The notes below the pieces were generated by a model that was given only the letters and a program-made list of their open reading frames with translations, did no database searches and was not told the origin of the DNA. The position numbers and the translations under genes were made by a program. Of a DNA stretch of 64,000 bases, positions 16,946 to 59,431 are shown piece by piece. Source of the DNA: a virus (lineage: Duplodnaviria; Caudoviricetes); the IMG/VR virus record IMGVR_UViG_3300033073_000489, positions 1-64,000 of that record; one strand, given 5' to 3'. How positions within the stretch are numbered: position 1 is the stretch's first letter; every line of letters starts with the position of its first letter.

Positions 16946-17925
16946 GTTGCAGGAGTTTTTTCATTAATGATCTCTAATGGAAAGCTATAATCAAACTCGC
17001 ACGGTCCTTGTTCTCTAATCCATGCTACCGTTTCTTTAATAGCCTGCTCTACACCTACGGTAGTCTTGTAACCTAATAGCGCACGAGCTTTGTCTGCCGA
17101 ACAAGTTGCGTGTTTAACTTCACGCGGTCGGTCGGCAATGTAGATAGGATCTCCTTGAAAACCGCACTCGCCTGCAACTAATTCTGCAAGTTCATTAATA
17201 GTAATAGTGCCCTCATCAGGACCAATGTTAACTGTTTCGCTAACGATTGCAGGATCTAATGCTAATTGTTCTAAGCATTTGATGCAGTCTGCTACATAAC
17301 TAAAGCATCTTGTCTGTAGACCGTCACCGTAGATATAAGCAGACTTTCCTTGTAAGTTACGATTAGCCATAATACTCATAACATTGCGAAACGGATCATC
17401 ATAGCGTTGACGTGGTCCTACAATGTTATGCGGCACAGCAATGTTCCACTCCATACCGTGCGTATCGCCTAGTGCTTTAAGTGTATGTTCAACAGCAACC
17501 TTTGCAATGCCATAAGGGTCTACAGGCAGTGGTGTTAGGTCTTCAGTAAATGGCGCTGCTTGATCACCATACCTTGCCATACTACTACAGAATACAAATC
17601 GTTTAACGCCTGCACCTATTGCGGCACTAATAGTTGATACACTCGCTTGGTAAATGTTTCGTGTTATAAAGTTAGGACTGAACACACTTAGTCCTTCGTG
17701 GGCAGTGGCTGCACAATGTATGACAATATCGCAGTCGCGCATTATCCACTGCATCTTAGAATGATCACAGCAATCAGTTGTAAAAAATTTAACTTGCGGA
17801 TTTACATTATCTTTATAGCCGCCTAATAGATTATCATTACCGACAACCTCGTGCCCTAACTCTAGCATACGATCTGCTAGGTGACTGCCGAGGAAACCGG
17901 CAACTCCGGTGATAAAGATTCTCAT
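16924..17925 (-). CDS. NAD-dependent epimerase/dehydratase (extended SDR)
   Basis: ITGVAGFLGSH, SS..RYG, YGIAK, NIVGP motifs. Confidence 0.92.
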   Translation of the reverse strand: MRIFITGVAGFLGSHLADRMLELGHEVVGNDNLLGGYKDNVNPQVKFFTTDCCDHSKMQWIMRDCDIVIHCAATAHEGLSVFSPNFITRNIYQASVSTISAAIGAGVKRFVFCSSMARYGDQAAPFTEDLTPLPVDPYGIAKVAVEHTLKALGDTHGMEWNIAVPHNIVGPRQRYDDPFRNVMSIMANRNLQGKSAYIYGDGLQTRCFSYVADCIKCLEQLALDPAIVSETVNIGPDEGTITINELAELVAGECGFQGDPIYIADRPREVKHATCSADKARALLGYKTTVGVEQAIKETVAWIREQGPCEFDYSFPLEIINEKTPATWKDRLM

Positions 17926-34058: not shown

Positions 34059-34157
34059 TGGTGCAGGCGGTAGGATTCGAACCTACAAAGGCGCTCTAAG
34101 AGCTAGCCCCGTTCCCTCCCCGAAGGGAGGAGGTCTACCAATTCCACTCACGTCTGC
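34059..34157 (-). ncRNA. tRNA-Leu-like RNA lacking a 7-nt anticodon loop (cUUCGg tetraloop)
   Basis: GCAGACG/CGCCTGC acceptor, A73, CCA, GGAATTGGTAGAC D-loop, GTAGG-TTCGAAT-CCTAC T-arm, long variable arm; anticodon arm CCTCCC-TTCG-GGGAGG. Confidence 0.8.
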
Positions 34158-52857: not shown

Positions 52858-52886
52858 AAAAAATAGGACCCGGAGGTCCTATTATT
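52858..52886. terminator. Terminator at the right boundary of the enzyme cluster
   Basis: ATAGGACC-CGGA-GGTCCTAT with a flanking A-tract. Confidence 0.75.
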
Positions 52887-53346
52887 CTGCATACCAAATT
52901 TCTGTAAAACCTTCGTCTTCGGTTGGCATTTCAAACCCAGCAATCATACTAGCAATAACGTGCTCTGGAATTTCTTTCCCAGGACGACTCCACAGTCTAC
53001 GAATCAACTCCTTATGCTCTGGTGTCTTGAACACGACGGCAATATGCTCGTAGTTTGGCAGAGTGTTAAACTTACGCTTACGGCTAGCAATAGTTGTTGA
53101 AGTTTGATCCCAGATTACATCTAAGTTGTTTGCTTGACAGACCAACGCTTGGTTTGCCATTAACCGAACAGCGATTGGCATGTATTCAGTAAACACTTCA
53201 GAGTAAGTCTTACCTTGCTCCTTAGCGTATGCTTCTACAAAGTTGTCAGTAGACACTACAGGAATATCCTTAGCCCAGTCTTGGTTGTTAATCCAAGTAG
53301 ACTTTCCAGATCCTGGAACACCGACTAATTGATAACACTTTGGCAT
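52882..53346 (-). CDS. AAA_33/polynucleotide-kinase-like P-loop protein
   Basis: GVPGSGKST, DQTST..RK, L..RL..RP, IPEHVI..M. Confidence 0.85.
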   Translation of the reverse strand: MPKCYQLVGVPGSGKSTWINNQDWAKDIPVVSTDNFVEAYAKEQGKTYSEVFTEYMPIAVRLMANQALVCQANNLDVIWDQTSTTIASRKRKFNTLPNYEHIAVVFKTPEHKELIRRLWSRPGKEIPEHVIASMIAGFEMPTEDEGFTEIWYAE

Positions 53347-53519
53347 TTTTGTAACCTTTCTATTTCATCAGCTGCCTCTTCCAGCAGGTCTGCTATACGA
53401 TCTCTTGCACCTTCTTCAACACTCTTACGGCCAGGTATCTGTCGTCTAATCTCCGCCCGTTTGCGCAAACGGAAGACTAGACTTTGTTCAGATACTGGCA
53501 AGTGACTTTCATCTTTCAT
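53325..53519 (-). CDS. Small hypothetical protein
   Basis: LVFRLRKRAEIRRQIP.RKSV..DRIADLLEEAADEIERL; ATG 53519. Confidence 0.7.
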   Translation of the reverse strand: MKDESHLPVSEQSLVFRLRKRAEIRRQIPGRKSVEEGARDRIADLLEEAADEIERLQKCQSVIN

Positions 53520-54415
53520 GCTAATTGTTCCCTTACCCATGCTAGACGAGCTTGCTCGTCCATTGCTGTGTATTCTACTATGTTAGCACGGATTGCGTCA
53601 ACCAGTGGATAGTATTCTTCATCTAGATTGTGCTTAATGTCCTTGTTCAAGTCTACTAACTTATCTGTGCGTGGATTGCGAGCAACCCACTTTGAAGTTA
53701 GGTAGTATGGTGACTTGATCTTAGCACTCACACCTTCGTCAGTATAGAATACATAACCTTCATGCTTACATTCCTTAGCCAACTGTTCCAAACGTGCCAT
53801 GTTAGTTGTAACACTTTCTGCCCAGAAACAGTTTAGGCTACGAGCAAAGTCCATTAGGATGTATGGGTCATGTAAGATCTTAGAGCCGAACACGTTTTCG
53901 CGCCAGCCTAACAAATACATACCCGACTTTTCTGGAATGATATGTGGATCACTTGGATGCACACATTCAAACATAAAAGTCACTCCCTTGCACTCTGCGT
54001 TGCCTAGTGCCATTTGCCAGTCAGCCCAGCACATATGAGTTAGCATCATTTCTTTTGCCATTGCTACATATGGGCTGTCTGTGCTACCAGTAGTAGACAC
54101 TAGGATGTCTCCGTTGTGCCAAGTCATAGCAACCATGAACCCGTTTATCTTACGGAACGCTGTAACCTTAGTATCGCCGGATAGCTTTGGAGCTTCCTTT
54201 TCAATACCGTAGTTATAGATCTTTGTGAATGGATATGTAACTAGGTTAAAATCCTTGTCCACAATAGACCCACGACATTCTGCAATGTAGTCGTTCCACA
54301 AGTTGTCGTAGAATACCTTCTTCTTATACTTTAATACAAAGAGCCCGTCACTACATTCCTTCATGTTAACCAATCCAGAAGTAGCAACGTAGTTCTTTAA
54401 CTCATCCTTAAACAT
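53516..54415 (-). CDS. RNA ligase, T4 Rnl1-like
   Basis: Motif I RKING, FE, EGYV, KIKSPYY; PFTKIYNYG. Confidence 0.8.
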   Translation of the reverse strand: MFKDELKNYVATSGLVNMKECSDGLFVLKYKKKVFYDNLWNDYIAECRGSIVDKDFNLVTYPFTKIYNYGIEKEAPKLSGDTKVTAFRKINGFMVAMTWHNGDILVSTTGSTDSPYVAMAKEMMLTHMCWADWQMALGNAECKGVTFMFECVHPSDPHIIPEKSGMYLLGWRENVFGSKILHDPYILMDFARSLNCFWAESVTTNMARLEQLAKECKHEGYVFYTDEGVSAKIKSPYYLTSKWVARNPRTDKLVDLNKDIKHNLDEEYYPLVDAIRANIVEYTAMDEQARLAWVREQLA

Positions 54416-54956
54416 GATGACCCTTAATTTCTTTGTCCTTGATCATACGTATAGCACGATCCAAGCCAATTACAATTTCTCCAGTTGAGTCCATACCCAC
54501 ATCTAATGCGCGATACTTTTCCAACCCGCTTACACCACCGTGCAAGTGTCCATGAAAATGCAAAGCTCCTCTGTGCATTTGATCCCACTCAGCGATTGGA
54601 TAGTGGAACATAACAATCTTGTGACCGTCATACGTCATATCCAAATACTTGTGAACTTCCTTAAATGCATTACGGAAAGTTACATCCATCAATGTCTTGC
54701 GATCGTGGTTACCTTCAATCAAAATCTTTGTGCCGTTCAAACGATTAATCATTCTACCAGCATCGCTACCTGACATGAACGCTACATCACCTAAGATGTA
54801 AACTGTGTCTTCGGGTTGAACCTTGTGGTTCCATTCCTCAACCATAGCATTATTCATGTAGGTAACATCGTCATTAAAACGTGCTCGCGTCTGTGGGCAG
54901 AACTTCATAATGTTCTTATGCCCAAAGTGCAAGTCACTTGTAATCCATGTTTTCAT
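54408..54956 (-). CDS. Calcineurin-like phosphoesterase
   Basis: SDLHFGH, LGD, GNHD, FHYP, HGHLH, DVGMD. Confidence 0.9.
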   Translation of the reverse strand: MKTWITSDLHFGHKNIMKFCPQTRARFNDDVTYMNNAMVEEWNHKVQPEDTVYILGDVAFMSGSDAGRMINRLNGTKILIEGNHDRKTLMDVTFRNAFKEVHKYLDMTYDGHKIVMFHYPIAEWDQMHRGALHFHGHLHGGVSGLEKYRALDVGMDSTGEIVIGLDRAIRMIKDKEIKGHHV

Positions 54957-55154
54957 TTATTCACCTACAAATTCTTTTACCCATTCAAAATGAGTTTCGC
55001 TGGCCTTAACCCACTTAAACTGCTCTCGACGTCTGTTGATCTTGTCGAAGTCAAAGCAAATAAAGATCCAGCCCTTTTCTTCTGAGAACTGCACAGATTC
55101 AGCAACCCGAACAATCTGCACAATCCTGTCCTTAAACTTTGCTACGATCATCAT
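54957..55154 (-). CDS. Small hypothetical protein
   Basis: 65-aa ORF in operon. Confidence 0.6.
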   Translation of the reverse strand: MMIVAKFKDRIVQIVRVAESVQFSEEKGWIFICFDFDKINRRREQFKWVKASETHFEWVKEFVGE

Positions 55155-55163
55155 ACTGGCTCC

Positions 55164-55445
55164 TTACATGGACCAGTAAGTCTCCGAAGCTGGATTGCAA
55201 CACCAAGGAGTGTCGCGATCAATTTGGACATCTTTACCGGTCATCAAATTCTTAACTGTTTTCATTGTTGGGAAATATTCAAAACGATAGCCCAACTTTG
55301 CAGGATACAAACTAAACAATTCGGCGCATTCACGCTTCATGCTCGCTTCATCGCGGGCTTGCCAAACTGTAGTAGAAACAAGACGCTCACCTCGCTTAGT
55401 GCGCTTGTCCAATTTGTAGATATACAATGTCCAATCTTGTTTCAT
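55164..55445 (-). CDS. Hypothetical protein
   Basis: KNLMTGKDVQI..DTPWCCNPASETYWSM C-terminus; own RBS and promoter. Confidence 0.75.
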   Translation of the reverse strand: MKQDWTLYIYKLDKRTKRGERLVSTTVWQARDEASMKRECAELFSLYPAKLGYRFEYFPTMKTVKNLMTGKDVQIDRDTPWCCNPASETYWSM

Positions 55446-55476
55446 TTCGCTCTCCTATGTGTTTCAGTATATGTAT

Positions 55477-55505
55477 ATTATATGCTCAAACGGCTAAGGC
55501 GTCAA
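55477..55505 (-). promoter_or_regulatory. sigma70-type promoter
   Basis: TTGACG-N17-TATAAT. Confidence 0.8.
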
Positions 55506-55534
55506 CCAGAGAGTTGTTGTATTAATACAACACT

Positions 55535-55726
55535 TTACCAATCTTCGACACCGCTAATCTCAATGTTAAACGAGCCCTGTAGCCCGCCAGCATCAAGTGG
55601 AAATGTCATCGTAGTGACGCTTCCAATTCCACTGCTAGAATCTTGGTCTAGTTCAAAAATTTCTACTTCTGGAAACTTATCCAAAACTTCTTGAATTTTG
55701 TCGATGTCTTTTCTAGTTAAGTGCAT
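55535..55726 (-). CDS. Small hypothetical protein
   Basis: 63-aa ORF. Confidence 0.65.
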   Translation of the reverse strand: MHLTRKDIDKIQEVLDKFPEVEIFELDQDSSSGIGSVTTMTFPLDAGGLQGSFNIEISGVEDW

Positions 55727-56193
55727 CAGTCTATACTCCTAAATGTGCGCCAATCATCAAGATTGGGCTTTTCGTTTTCGTCGTATGTCCAGCCCAATGC
55801 CTTCATCATACGATGCTTGACTAACAAGTTAGGGCTACGGAAACGACCAGTATCCTGGAAGCCCATCATGACACCAACTTCACAAACTGCACCCGAACGG
55901 CAGATACCTGCAAAGCAATGAACAACAACGTTCATGTGGTTGTCCTTTGCGTGTTGCAACAGGCGAACTAGCTCGTCGGCTTGTTCTTGACTGCAACGCA
56001 TTTCTTCGTCGTCTACGTGATCATTCTTTTCTACATCCAAGAATTCAAAGTTATGAATTTCCTTGAACTTGTGCGCAGGAGTAGGACGCCAGCTTGCAGG
56101 ATCAGTAATACTGATCAGCATACTGTTCTCCCCTGCTTCGTGATGGAACCGCTTTGGAATGTCATCAGCGGCGACATTTTCAATCCATGGCAT
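55726..56193 (-). CDS. Cys-dependent (PTP/DSP-like) phosphatase
   Basis: VVHCFAGICRSGA = HCxxGxxRS. Confidence 0.85.
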   Translation of the reverse strand: MPWIENVAADDIPKRFHHEAGENSMLISITDPASWRPTPAHKFKEIHNFEFLDVEKNDHVDDEEMRCSQEQADELVRLLQHAKDNHMNVVVHCFAGICRSGAVCEVGVMMGFQDTGRFRSPNLLVKHRMMKALGWTYDENEKPNLDDWRTFRSID

Positions 56194-56273: not shown

Positions 56274-56288
56274 AAAAAGTAATACTTT

Positions 56289-57698
56289 TTAGCTAAGGTC
56301 GTAGCGTGGGACCATTACAGTCTTAAGCATGATACCTTCTGGAGTGAATTGGTCCAGATCAGCGGACAGCAAAGCTGTCATGATGCTTGGGCTAAATCCG
56401 CTAACTAGAGCGGCTCCAGACTTGTCTGACTTAACAGGAACGTTACCGCTACTGTTCAAGTTCCAGAACACAACTTGTGGTGCGGTATAACCCGCATCAG
56501 CATACTTGCGTTCGATCATTTCCATTGCGCTGTCGTCGAAACGAGCGCATTGGTTGAACTGCATGTCTGACAAGATTAGCAACATCTTTGGCATGTCGCT
56601 AGCTGGGACGTTACCCTTAACTGCAACGCTTAGGATCTTGTCCATAGCGGCATGCAAGTTAGTGCTCATTTCCCAGTTGCTGGTCGACATTTGTTCGACC
56701 TTTTGAACAATGTTACCCTTTAGAGTAACAAGTTGTGGCTTGCTAGAGAAAGTCAAGAATGTGTCCTTGAACACGCCCTTGTTCTTGTCTGCAAGATACA
56801 AACCTAGTCCAACCGCTACATCCAAACAACGAACAGTCGAACCTGGAACAGATGTTGTCATCGAACCAGATACGTCAACTAGAGGCAGGATACTTGCGTC
56901 ACCTACGTAGTTAGGCAGAGCGTCCCATTGTGCGATCACATGGTCTGTTTCTGTCTTGTTCAGCTTGGTGTAGCTGTGTGCAATGCCCTTCAACACATCA
57001 TGTGGGTAGATTGCTGAGGCGTTAACCTTAACAGTCTTATCACCACTTGTCAACTTGGCCACATACTCTGCGAACGCAGGTGTGTGACGGTTGAATGCCT
57101 TCTTGTAGTTGCGAGCAGCCACAGAAGGAACGTGTGAGAAGTTGATGTTATCCCAGTCGTTGGCACACATTTGTGTTTCAACAACCTTGGTAAGTGCCAC
57201 AAGGCTCTTACGATATTGCTTTGGAGTCATTCCAAAGAACGCACGGATTTCCTGTGCGATTTGACCCTTACGAGGAGTCCACTTTGCAGCCAAGCCATTA
57301 CGAGCACGAAGTGCATCGCCTAGCATAGTGTAAGCGGCGCTCTTAAGAGCAGGAGTAGAGAAGACAAAGATGTCGTCCCAACGTCCCACTTCAGGCGCCT
57401 TCTTTAGCAAAGCCAAAGCGGCGTCTGGGTCACGCTTTTCCAAGTGAACAAGAATGTCACGGAAAAGTTGACGTTCACCCGCACCACCACGGACATCACG
57501 TGCCCATTGTGCGATGCGTAGAGCAACGTCTTGGTTTTCAACATAAGCGGCTGTAAAGTCGCCTACGATGTTCTTACCACGGCTTGCGCCAATGTTGTAA
57601 AACAGGTCAACTGTAGCCTTGGCTGTTGACTTACGTGCCTTCATACCGTTAGCGGTGCGGGCTTCTTGATTTGCTACTGCGTTTACAAATGCGTTCAT
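56289..57698 (-). CDS. DUF2828/TROVE-like protein with C-terminal vWA domain (Ro60-related)
   Basis: WARDVRGGAGER, AAKWTPR, VDVSGSM (MIDAS), LILSDMQF, VFWNL. Confidence 0.85.
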   Translation of the reverse strand: MNAFVNAVANQEARTANGMKARKSTAKATVDLFYNIGASRGKNIVGDFTAAYVENQDVALRIAQWARDVRGGAGERQLFRDILVHLEKRDPDAALALLKKAPEVGRWDDIFVFSTPALKSAAYTMLGDALRARNGLAAKWTPRKGQIAQEIRAFFGMTPKQYRKSLVALTKVVETQMCANDWDNINFSHVPSVAARNYKKAFNRHTPAFAEYVAKLTSGDKTVKVNASAIYPHDVLKGIAHSYTKLNKTETDHVIAQWDALPNYVGDASILPLVDVSGSMTTSVPGSTVRCLDVAVGLGLYLADKNKGVFKDTFLTFSSKPQLVTLKGNIVQKVEQMSTSNWEMSTNLHAAMDKILSVAVKGNVPASDMPKMLLILSDMQFNQCARFDDSAMEMIERKYADAGYTAPQVVFWNLNSSGNVPVKSDKSGAALVSGFSPSIMTALLSADLDQFTPEGIMLKTVMVPRYDLS

Positions 57699-57710
57699 TT
57701 TAATTACCTT

Positions 57711-58220: not shown

Positions 58221-58249
58221 ATTATAGTATAGATCAAACTGCTTGTCTA
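58221..58249 (-). promoter_or_regulatory. sigma70-type promoter for units B-D and DUF2828
   Basis: TAGACA-N17-TATAAT. Confidence 0.65.
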
Positions 58250-58271
58250 GCCTTTTGGCTAAACTGAATAA

Positions 58272-58388
58272 AACAGGATACTATTCTTTGACGAATGCTC
58301 TACCTAATGAGCTATTTTTCCCTAGCGGAAAAAGATGGAATCGAACCACCTACCTATCGTTTGGATAGTTTTGCTGTGAGTATCCTAA
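58272..58388 (-). ncRNA. YrlA-like Y RNA (ACAGCAA-stem unit A with permuted tRNA domain)
   Basis: AGGATACT/AGTATCCT closing stem; T-arm GGTGG-TTCGATT-CCATC, loop-closed acceptor-like helix, then D-arm TAGCTCATTAGGTAGAGCA. Confidence 0.7.
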
Positions 58389-58390
58389 AT

Positions 58391-58465
58391 TGGAGGTCAG
58401 GGTAGGGGTCAAACCTACCTGTATCCGGTTTGCAATCGGAAGCATAGTCGCTCTGCCACCTGACC
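58391..58465 (-). tRNA. tRNA-Cys(GCA)
   Basis: Cloverleaf, anticodon GCA, U73, CCA. Confidence 0.9.
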
Positions 58466-58546: not shown

Positions 58547-58972
58547 AATATGCTTTACTTCAATCCCGGACTTTTCCAGGAAATTTATTCCGCTATCATC
58601 CCGATAGTGGCTACCAAAAAATACACGAGCAATACCTGACTGATGGATAAGTTTGGCGCACTCAATGCAAGGACTGTGAGTGACAAATAAATCAGCACCC
58701 AAGCCACTATTACTAGACTTTGCCAACTTAGCAATCGCATTAGATTCTGCATGTAATACCTCTGGCTTTGTTTTCAACGAAGTTGTATCATCAGAATGTT
58801 GTATAACATCTTCGCAGTTGTTATCCCAACCGGCTGGCATACCATTGTAGCCATAACTGATGACACAGTCGTCTTTAACAATAACGGCTCCGACTTGCAA
58901 ACGTTTTGCGTGACTTAGCTGAGTCAGGCGTGTAGCCCAATCCATGTATAAGTCTATATACTTTTGCTTCAT
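58526..58972 (-). CDS. cd: dCMP deaminase
   Basis: GYNG.P.G, HAE.NAI, SPCIEC. Confidence 0.93.
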   Translation of the reverse strand: MKQKYIDLYMDWATRLTQLSHAKRLQVGAVIVKDDCVISYGYNGMPAGWDNNCEDVIQHSDDTTSLKTKPEVLHAESNAIAKLAKSSNSGLGADLFVTHSPCIECAKLIHQSGIARVFFGSHYRDDSGINFLEKSGIEVKHIGSLAQR

Positions 58973-59199
58973 ACCCGTTTTAAATACTCTTTACCGACTT
59001 TACCAGCTTGGATTTCTTCCAATGCTGTTAGCGCACTATGCACATGTTCACGCTTGTCGCTTTCGCGATGTTGACGTTTAATTTCACGTGCCCTAGCAGC
59101 CGCAATTAAAACAAGATCAAATCGATTACCGCCTGCGTTTTCTACGCACTTCTCAGTGTCTACATTTGGTCCACGACTTAAAAATTTTGATTGCAACAT
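58969..59199 (-). CDS. rpoZ: RNA polymerase omega-subunit homologue
   Basis: NRFDLVLIAAARAREI..ALTALEEIQAGK. Confidence 0.8.
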   Translation of the reverse strand: MLQSKFLSRGPNVDTEKCVENAGGNRFDLVLIAAARAREIKRQHRESDKREHVHSALTALEEIQAGKVGKEYLKRV

Positions 59200-59332: not shown

Positions 59333-59431
59333 TGGTCCCTCTGGCAGGACTCGAACCTGCACACTCAGGCTTATCTGGCCTGTGCTTTGGCGAGGTATAA
59401 GCTCGCGTCTTTACCATTAAGCTACAGAGGG
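59333..59431 (-). tRNA. tRNA with anticodon TAT (Ile-type) and an abnormal long variable arm
   Basis: CCCTCTG/CAGAGGG, GCGAG-CTTATAC-CTCGC, ~29-nt variable hairpin, T-arm, ACCA. Confidence 0.75.

Follow-up and report, generated by a model that had tools for sequence, protein, structure and literature searches.

A conserved YrlA-like permuted tRNA mimic on a distinct handle in a phage tRNA array, and its likely partnership with a distant Ro60-like protein

The tailed-phage record IMGVR_UViG_3300033073_000489 (Duplodnaviria; Caudoviricetes) was analysed over its positions 1 to 64,000, and this stretch of 64,000 nucleotides (nt), referred to here as the window, contains 17-18 transfer RNA (tRNA) genes, many of them in tandem, according to ARAGORN and Rfam. 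The source contig, from an uncultured freshwater virus, measures 82.8 kb with a CheckV completeness estimate of 23%, and since its close relatives measure 300-364 kb it is assigned to a jumbo phage. Within the tRNA array lies a non-coding element of about 114 nt, designated unit A, which spans 58387-58274 and begins 3 nt past the encoded CCA of a tRNA-Cys gene. It is followed by three sibling RNAs, units B-D, and by a gene on the same strand, 575 nt downstream of unit A, encoding a protein with DUF2828 and DUF7788 domains. All positions are in window numbering, and every feature related to these units is located on the minus strand. Unit A and the tRNA preceding it comprise the following parts.

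58465-58391, minus: tRNA-Cys(GCA), with its encoded CCA at 58393-58391 (ARAGORN; Rfam tRNA model, 41.1 bits)
58387-58380, minus: 5' closing strand of the handle, UAGGAUAC, pairing with 58281-58274
58379-58371, minus: single-stranded motif of the handle, UCACAGCAA (U-C-ACAGCAA), which recurs in the sibling units
58368-58354, minus: local hairpin P2, CUAUC-CAAAC-GAUAG, at the place of an anticodon arm (minimum free energy fold)
58350-58334, minus: T arm, GGUGG-UUCGAUU-CCAUC (sequence, fold and covariation)
58333-58315, minus: closed acceptor-like hairpin of 7 base pairs (bp), UUUUUCC-GCUAG-GGAAAAA, without a CCA end (fold and covariation)
58314-58313, minus: U8-A9 (UA; sequence)
58312-58297, minus: D arm, GCUC-AUUAGGUA-GAGC (sequence, fold and covariation)
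58296-58282, minus: 3' linker of 15 nt, an A26-like A followed by UUCGUCAAAGAAUA, variable among relatives
58281-58274, minus: 3' closing strand of the handle, GUAUCCUG, then UUU (minimum free energy fold and covariation)

The closing stem of 8 bp joins the 5' and 3' ends of unit A, and the acceptor-like hairpin inside it is flush with the T stem on one side and with U8 on the other. P2 is followed directly on its 3' side by GUA, a G46-like G is located at 58353, and the 3' linker is able either to form a small hairpin of its own or to pair with the 5' linker. The minimum free energy fold reproduces this drawn structure at -34.2 kcal/mol as compared to a shuffle mean of -21.3 (z = -3.98), with none of 200 shuffles being as stable. 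The sequence-only reading of this DNA had described the order T arm, closed acceptor and D arm inside a closing stem, directly after tRNA-Cys, and both the order and the position are confirmed by the sequence, by the fold over 58387-58274 and by the 3-nt spacer after the encoded CCA; its description of the parts was correct, but the P2 hairpin (CUAUC/GAUAG) had been overlooked. The same reading recognized in this order the arrangement of bacterial YrlA RNAs, in agreement with the publications on these RNAs (PMC4201824; bioRxiv 10.1101/312249). YrlA RNAs lie beside Ro60 in more than 250 bacteria and phages (PMC4201824), and their junction is closed by a stem of 5' and 3' strands without an anticodon loop (bioRxiv 10.1101/312249; structure 6CU1). 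A search with the Rfam YrlA model (RF02553) indeed gave an end-to-end alignment, with model positions 1-114 placed at 58387-58271, yet its 31.3 bits (E = 1.2e-4, searching 1 kb) fall short of the gathering score, which is 69, the alignment being good over model positions 33-87, which constitute the tRNA-like core.

By BLASTN, unit A was recovered in only 3 of 80 close-relative loci, the 820-nt region had no match among 50,697 cultured phage records, and the element looked non-conserved until covariance models were applied. A model built from the window copy and the relative L078 gave 10 strong matches among close relatives, and scanning viral contigs with a pattern yielded a further set of 81 stretches; pooled with the model search, these amounted to 73 matches, 63 of them distinct. 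In the alignment of these 63 sequences 96.3% of the cells are paired, as compared to 32-44% after a shift of the partners by 1-3 columns, and double changes are present at 18 of the 27 pairs. The T stem is paired in 100% of the cells, with double changes in four of its five pairs, and its covariation recurs in an independent MAFFT alignment of nine copies. The acceptor-like hairpin has double changes in all seven pairs (96.7% of cells paired), its flush stem being 7 bp long in 26 relatives, whereas 13 have 8 bp and 6 have 9 bp, while all three modelled pairs of P2 have double changes, with 84% of the cells paired. In the 5' strand of the closing stem two pairs covary, with A-U replaced by G-C in 13 and in 3 sequences.

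An artefact of which Chen et al. 2014 warned (PMC4201824) is that tandem tRNAs can give false YrlA matches, and the remnant explanation, according to which unit A combines the T arm of one decayed tRNA with the D arm of the next, draws on this warning as well as on the many tandem tRNA genes of the window and the sub-threshold YrlA score. However, the acceptor is closed by a loop of 4-5 nt, too short to accommodate a trailer and a leader, covariation is present in all 7 of its pairs, and a conserved, covarying stem surrounds the unit as a whole. When the unit A model is applied to the real tandem tRNA junctions of the window, the match is confined to its inner part and scores about 31 bits, as compared to a full-length match of 135.6 bits with unit A itself, and because of this difference the tandem-tRNA type of false positive is excluded. 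A remnant origin is hence judged extremely improbable, and the 63 distinct covarying relatives also dispose of the scrambled sequence lacking conservation that the sequence-only reading had named as its own alternative. Unit A is a real, conserved, tRNA-shaped non-coding RNA, which would be expressed as a discrete molecule. The handle starts 4-8 nt past a tRNA in 42 of the 63 family members, the tRNAs being of 19 identities, and because of this spacing after such varied tRNAs it is probably the 3' processing of the tRNA that determines the 5' end of unit A. Beyond the end of the window the contig has another permuted tRNA mimic of full length that carries the handle, at contig positions 67013-67161 on the minus strand (L170:2012-2160); it has a T arm GCGG-UUCGACU-CCGC, a closed acceptor hairpin of 8 bp and a D arm, and scores 67.1 bits with the R2 model.

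The tertiary positions of a tRNA could be read in 59 parsable copies. U8 and A14 are present in 59/59, A21 in 56/59 and G46 in 55/59, the GG corresponding to G18-G19 is kept in the D loop, and the T loop is UUCGAnU in every parsed copy. The 15-48 pair covaries, with U-A in 22 copies, A-U in 14 and G-C in 8, amounting to 44 of 59 of Watson-Crick type, a number that is reached by none of 5000 shuffles. This tertiary covariation is the strongest computational evidence for the predicted D/T elbow in unit A.

The anticodon side is less uniform. The sequence-only reading held that the protein-binding stem replaces the anticodon arm, and this applies to some of the relatives: L006, L051, L064, L081, L070 and L083 have a two-strand stem of the YrlA type composed of two covarying helices. 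The window copy and many relatives, in contrast, carry a local hairpin at this place, which in the window copy is predicted with 5 bp and a 5-nt loop, next to an alternative two-strand stem of 4 bp formed by ACGA (58360-58357) and UCGU (58294-58291). A search over registers found at least 4 of 5 two-strand pairs in most copies, this being the best of nine registers and hence informative only for the subgroup with 5/5 pairs plus a second helix. In about 20 copies a local hairpin of 5 bp with a 7-nt loop C-U-NNN-A-A is followed by a 5-nt stretch resembling a variable loop, which together make up a whole anticodon arm.

Such copies bring up the explanation that unit A is a permuted tRNA precursor, which would yield a working tRNA once the phage ligase and kinase, acting with RNase P/Z, had removed the handle, linked position 26 to 27 and opened the acceptor loop. 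It is consistent with an acceptor stem of exactly 7 bp, with the fact that all four arms can be drawn, with the 5-bp hairpins and 7-nt C-U-NNN-A-A loops of many relatives, with the RNA ligase and polynucleotide kinase (PNK)-like genes downstream, and with the cleavage by RNase P of the Mycobacterium smegmatis YrlA, which has a 7-bp stem (bioRxiv 10.1101/312249). When the copies were re-permuted in silico, 23 of 46 were called as tRNA by ARAGORN; however, 15.6 of 46 were still called with shuffled hairpins, so the discrimination is weak. The window copy with its 5-nt loop is not called as a tRNA by ARAGORN after re-permutation, nor as the native sequence, for which the Rfam tRNA model gives 22.3 bits over the D-arm part only, below its score of 29. 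In red algae and some archaea there are circularly permuted tRNA genes that give rise to decoding tRNAs and have a bulge-helix-bulge motif for splicing. Unit A resembles these genes in that a loop closes the acceptor and that both ends, 5' and 3', are in the anticodon-side half, and differs from them in lacking a bulge-helix-bulge motif, a CCA or discriminator context in the acceptor loop, and a 7-nt anticodon loop. Moreover, some relatives have no hairpin and only the two-strand stem, and the handle is also found on inserts that are not tRNA-like. Maturation of unit A into a working tRNA is accordingly given a very low probability.

The handle consists of a covarying closing stem followed by single-stranded NN-ACAGCAA, and was recognized by a covarying closing stem of 7-8 bp, 2-3 nt and ACAGCAA on the 5' side and a G after the 3' strand, all of which unit A possesses (58387-58371 with 58281-58274). 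The pattern AGRAT-N5-CAGCAA occurs four times on the minus strand of the window, and five times on both strands as compared to a chance expectation of 0.06; over the whole contig it occurs eight times on the minus strand, with 0 occurrences of a control pattern. The match on the plus strand, at 17758-17773 (AGAAUGAUCACAGCAA), is far from the array. Between unit A and the protein gene, the handle pattern and the covariation of the stem define three sibling units.

58188-58024, minus: unit B, handle RNA
58016-57778, minus: unit C, handle RNA
57768-57712, minus: unit D, handle RNA

Each of units B-D has the 5' element AGRAU-NN, 3 nt and CAGCAA with a matching 3' strand; their stems covary, their inserts are unrelated, and in a BLASTN comparison with 80 related loci B is conserved in 48, C in 43 and D in 70. 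Among handle RNAs in general, unit A is the member with a YrlA-like permuted-tRNA insert, and units B-D carry other inserts. The minus strand of the contig has eight handle units, including the tRNA-like one beyond the window end, and the stem covaries also across units A-D and the four further copies. Unit D, the shortest, ends 13 nt ahead of the start codon of the protein gene, its 3' strand abutting an AAAGG ribosome-binding stretch, and it is the sole copy with an AGAAU/AUUCU stem.

The neighbouring gene (57698-56289, minus) encodes a protein of 469 amino acids assigned to DUF2828 and DUF7788 by Pfam and to PHROG 850, labelled 'RNA-binding protein'. Its AlphaFold2 model, with a predicted local distance difference test (pLDDT) score of 92.4 and a predicted template modelling (pTM) score of 0.91, consists of a ring of helical repeats and a C-terminal vWA domain. 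The top 13 Foldseek matches of this model are all Ro60/TROVE (E = 4e-8, template modelling score 0.64), VIA-align superposes it on 1yvr over 410 residues (Z 21.5, root-mean-square deviation 3.9 A), and in the VIA-align ranking Ro60 entries occupy ranks 1-10 with Z of 12-21.5, while matches to the vWA domain only reach at most 9.7. The residues D275, S277, S279, T346 and D378 of the MIDAS, the metal-ion-dependent adhesion site, are invariant in 68 homologues. The link to Ro60 rests on this predicted fold, because the sequence matches to Ro60/TROVE are insignificant, and the model points to a distant Ro60-like protein. The functional connection between DUF2828 and Ro60 proposed in the sequence-only reading is partly supported, in that the model superposes on Ro60 over its entire length, but it lacks a significant sequence match and was already present in annotations. 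Homologues in mycobacteriophages have been named 'Ro-like RNA binding protein', and that of the mycobacteriophage LeBron was reported to be toxic upon overexpression (PMC13148394); with these names and the PHROG 850 label, a link to Ro60 at the protein level is not new. The family is large: it falls into 6211 clusters when the identity threshold is 50%, and is present in 706 records of cultured phages.

Among loci holding both the RNA and the gene, the gene is downstream and on the same strand in 28/28, at distances from 139 nt to 12 kb, and a homologue is encoded in 5/5 whole viral records with a unit-A-type RNA. The handle was further surveyed in six distant cultured phages whose genomes carry the DUF2828-type gene, and modules composed of a stem and NN-ACAGCAA were found on the strand of the gene in all six.

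Felix O1: 4 handle modules, within 1.2 kb downstream of the gene
Mycobacteriophage Snenia: 3 handle modules, directly downstream of the gene
Listeria phage LP-039: 3 handle modules, directly upstream of the gene
Campylobacter phage CP30A: 2 handle modules, directly upstream of the gene
Synechococcus phage BUCT-ZZ01: 2 handle modules, directly upstream of the gene
Vibrio phage nt-1: 2 handle modules, 3-7 kb upstream of the gene

The stem sequences are wholly different among these phages and ACAGCAA is constant, and the full tRNA-like version is present in Snenia (70.7 bits with the R2 model) and in Felix O1 (63 bits). In the flanks of the gene in LP-039, an RtcB-type RNA ligase (L174:10852-12063) is encoded 1.3 kb downstream, and since it is of this type, LP-039 uses another ligase family than the Rnl1-like gene of the window in the same context. 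In BUCT-ZZ01 a permuted transfer-messenger RNA (Rfam, 111.9 bits; L171:1737-2137) is located 4 kb upstream of the DUF2828 gene, in a tRNA region.

This recurrent association bears on the explanation that unit A works independently of the DUF2828 protein, as a processing element of the tRNA operon or as a free-standing tRNA decoy. It would then titrate, for instance, an anticodon nuclease of the host or an enzyme that modifies or processes tRNA, and the handle would be a signal for RNase processing or for stability. Its location in tRNA arrays 4-8 nt after a tRNA and often kilobases away from the protein gene, the promoter-like site between unit A and the gene and the conserved elbow features of a tRNA are what such an element would have. 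However, phages of five bacterial phyla have the handle together with, and on the strand of, the DUF2828 gene, and this is so in Campylobacter CP30A and Snenia with few or no tRNA genes in the examined flanks, the downstream array of Snenia having 0 tRNA at E <= 0.1 and one tRNA being found upstream. Furthermore, the gene is present in every one of the five examined whole records holding the RNA, and a constant handle with variable inserts is the design of Y RNAs. Independence from the protein is thus considered unlikely, even if less so than the two explanations dealt with above.

The region around unit A and the protein gene contains, in addition, the following features, of which the enzymes were identified by Pfam and PHROGs.

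58249-58221, minus: sigma-70-like promoter TAGACA-17-TATAAT, 11/12 consensus positions, by consensus match only
56193-55726, minus: DSP-type phosphatase-like protein
54956-54408, minus: phosphoesterase
54415-53516, minus: Rnl1-like RNA ligase
53346-52882, minus: PNK-like P-loop protein

The phosphatase-like, phosphoesterase, ligase and PNK-like genes form a set for the healing and sealing of RNA ends downstream of the Ro60-like gene (52882-56193). A further sigma-70 consensus, matching at 12/12 positions, is present at 59247-59219 (minus), ahead of an omega-like open reading frame (ORF), a dCMP deaminase gene, tRNA-Val and tRNA-Cys; the ORF, of 76 codons for amino acids (58969-59199, minus), lies directly behind this consensus and matches the omega/Rpb6 family of RNA polymerase subunits (E = 1.8e-10). 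Shuffled sequences have as many promoter-like and terminator-like sites as the region does, and only these two promoter matches stand out in quality. The site at 58249-58221 suggests that the tRNA transcript from upstream may end with unit A, and that a separate start may serve units B-D and the protein gene. Contigs from four freshwater metatranscriptomes, which cannot reveal RNA ends, cover the Ro-like gene and units B-D of relatives and leave 58222-58415 nearly uncovered, and are hence uninformative on the expression of unit A. Over the Ro60-like gene (56282-57700) the contigs of relatives pile up to a summed word depth of hundreds to thousands, as compared to less than 80 over the next downstream gene, which is suggestive of high expression, with the reservation that the runs were picked using that gene and that the contigs come from many strains. 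Elsewhere in the window, a 96-nt tRNA found by Rfam at 59336-59431 (minus; 56.8 bits) and missed by ARAGORN is apparently a tRNA for Ile whose extra arm is long, ARAGORN calling tRNA-Ile(UAU) of 92-94 nt at similar places in relatives, and a 99-nt tRNA-Arg(UCG) called by ARAGORN at 34059-34157 (minus), far from the tRNA array, is not reported by Rfam at its gathering score and is doubtful.

When compared with known systems, unit A is alike to YrlA in the order of T arm, closed acceptor and D arm, enclosed by a stem that the 5' and 3' ends form, in the elbow nucleotides, in its location within 4 kb of, and on one strand with, a gene for a vWA-bearing ring protein, in being accompanied by partner RNAs that are not tRNA-like and have a common protein-binding part, and in its linkage to RNA-repair genes. 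It differs from YrlA in that an 8-bp stem with NN-ACAGCAA takes the place of the Ro60-binding helix, the window copy has a predicted local hairpin instead of the two-strand anticodon-like stem, the neighbouring protein is assigned to DUF2828/DUF7788 and not to TROVE in Pfam, and the unit is placed inside a phage tRNA array directly behind a tRNA. Binding by Ro60 and modification by TruB and DusA are further marks of a YrlA RNA. TROVE-type pairs of phage Ro60 and Y RNA have already been published (PMC4201824; PMC12135203), and the Ro60 of the Thermus phage phiLo binds two upstream Y-like RNAs and the host polynucleotide phosphorylase (PNPase) (PMC12135203). The phiLo system with its RNAs Yrl1 and Yrl2 (PMC12135203; PDB 9KOP, 9L5Y) shares with the window a phage protein of the Ro60 fold and Y-like RNAs upstream on the same strand, and the phiLo Ro60 structure is among the top matches of the window protein model (Z 17.3). 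At the same time, the phiLo Ro60 is of the TROVE family, with 15-17% sequence identity to the window protein, and its RNAs, which were selected for a bulge motif CGAA, are described neither as mimics of tRNA nor as bearing ACAGCAA. Phage Ro/Y particles thus exist and can engage the host nuclease PNPase. Neither the ACAGCAA handle nor an RNA partner of DUF2828 proteins was found in the literature or in Rfam, a comparison that leaves aside the phage list of Chen et al. 2014, and DUF2828 was met in the full-text literature only in unrelated plant and tardigrade papers. What is new here is a different protein-binding handle and a distant Ro60-like partner on the known YrlA architecture, the binding itself being putative as are expression and function.

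Unit A is most likely a variant of Y RNA, the partner of Ro60 in animals as well as bacteria, and the handle is most likely the binding site of the DUF2828/DUF7788 ring protein. Several results weigh against this interpretation. Unit A (31.3 bits) and its relatives including that of Snenia (31.8-40.1 bits) all miss the RF02553 cut-off of 69, and the Ro60-binding part of the YrlA model is unmatched, its inner-stem positions being marked as non-pairs where the stem and NN-ACAGCAA are found instead; the proposal in the sequence-only reading of a divergent class of Y RNA agrees with both of these results. On the side of the protein, Pfam reports no TROVE domain and vWA_Ro60 only at E = 0.014, short of the cut-off, and no significant match was found among PDB sequences (phmmer with the single sequence; the best profile match has E = 0.08 and covers the vWA region only). 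Adjacency is loose, unit-A-type RNAs often being several kb from the protein gene (more than 3 kb for many copies), and the promoter-like site at 58249-58221 parts unit A from units B-D and the gene. Finally, the counts of covariation are inflated by the relatedness of the sequences and by an alignment that is mostly fitted to the model, their direction nevertheless being unambiguous.

Taken as a whole, the best explanation, which we hold to be reasonably probable, is that unit A is a YrlA-type tRNA mimic on a handle, acting as a partner of the Ro60-shaped ring protein in RNA surveillance. In this mechanism unit A would be cut from the 3' end of the tRNA-containing transcript, and its core would fold to a tRNA-like L composed of the T arm, the loop-closed 7-bp acceptor and the D arm with a D/T elbow, a circularly permuted mimic that could not be charged. 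By analogy with particles of Ro60 and Y RNA, the handle would anchor the RNA on the ring protein, while the tRNA-like module would recruit, or compete for, a tRNA-recognising factor, with the phage ligase, kinase and phosphoesterase repair enzymes, a host exoribonuclease and a host tRNA-cleaving defence enzyme as candidates. Such a particle would act in tRNA/RNA surveillance during infection. A more far-reaching version, which we put forward tentatively and regard as somewhat doubtful, is that of a second class of Ro/Y-RNA particle, widespread in large phages (Felix O1 and Listeria, Campylobacter, Vibrio and mycobacterial phages), in which the DUF2828 ring would hold a universal stem-ACAGCAA handle and display interchangeable tRNA look-alikes, either baiting host tRNA-cleaving defences or tethering phage tRNA repair enzymes; the look-alikes may switch between a two-strand stem and a hairpin resembling an anticodon arm.

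What the tRNA-like domain of YrlA binds becomes testable through the present system, where the same domain is found on another handle, with a different ring protein related in structure only, in phage tRNA arrays and beside repair genes for a ligase and a kinase; tractable systems for this are Felix O1 in Salmonella, Listeria phages and the mycobacteriophage LeBron. If the pairing of handle RNA and ring protein holds, DUF2828/DUF7788 would gain a function, and a family present in more than 700 cultured phage records and thousands of metagenomic clusters would represent a Ro60-like RNA-binding particle in the contest between phage and host over tRNA.

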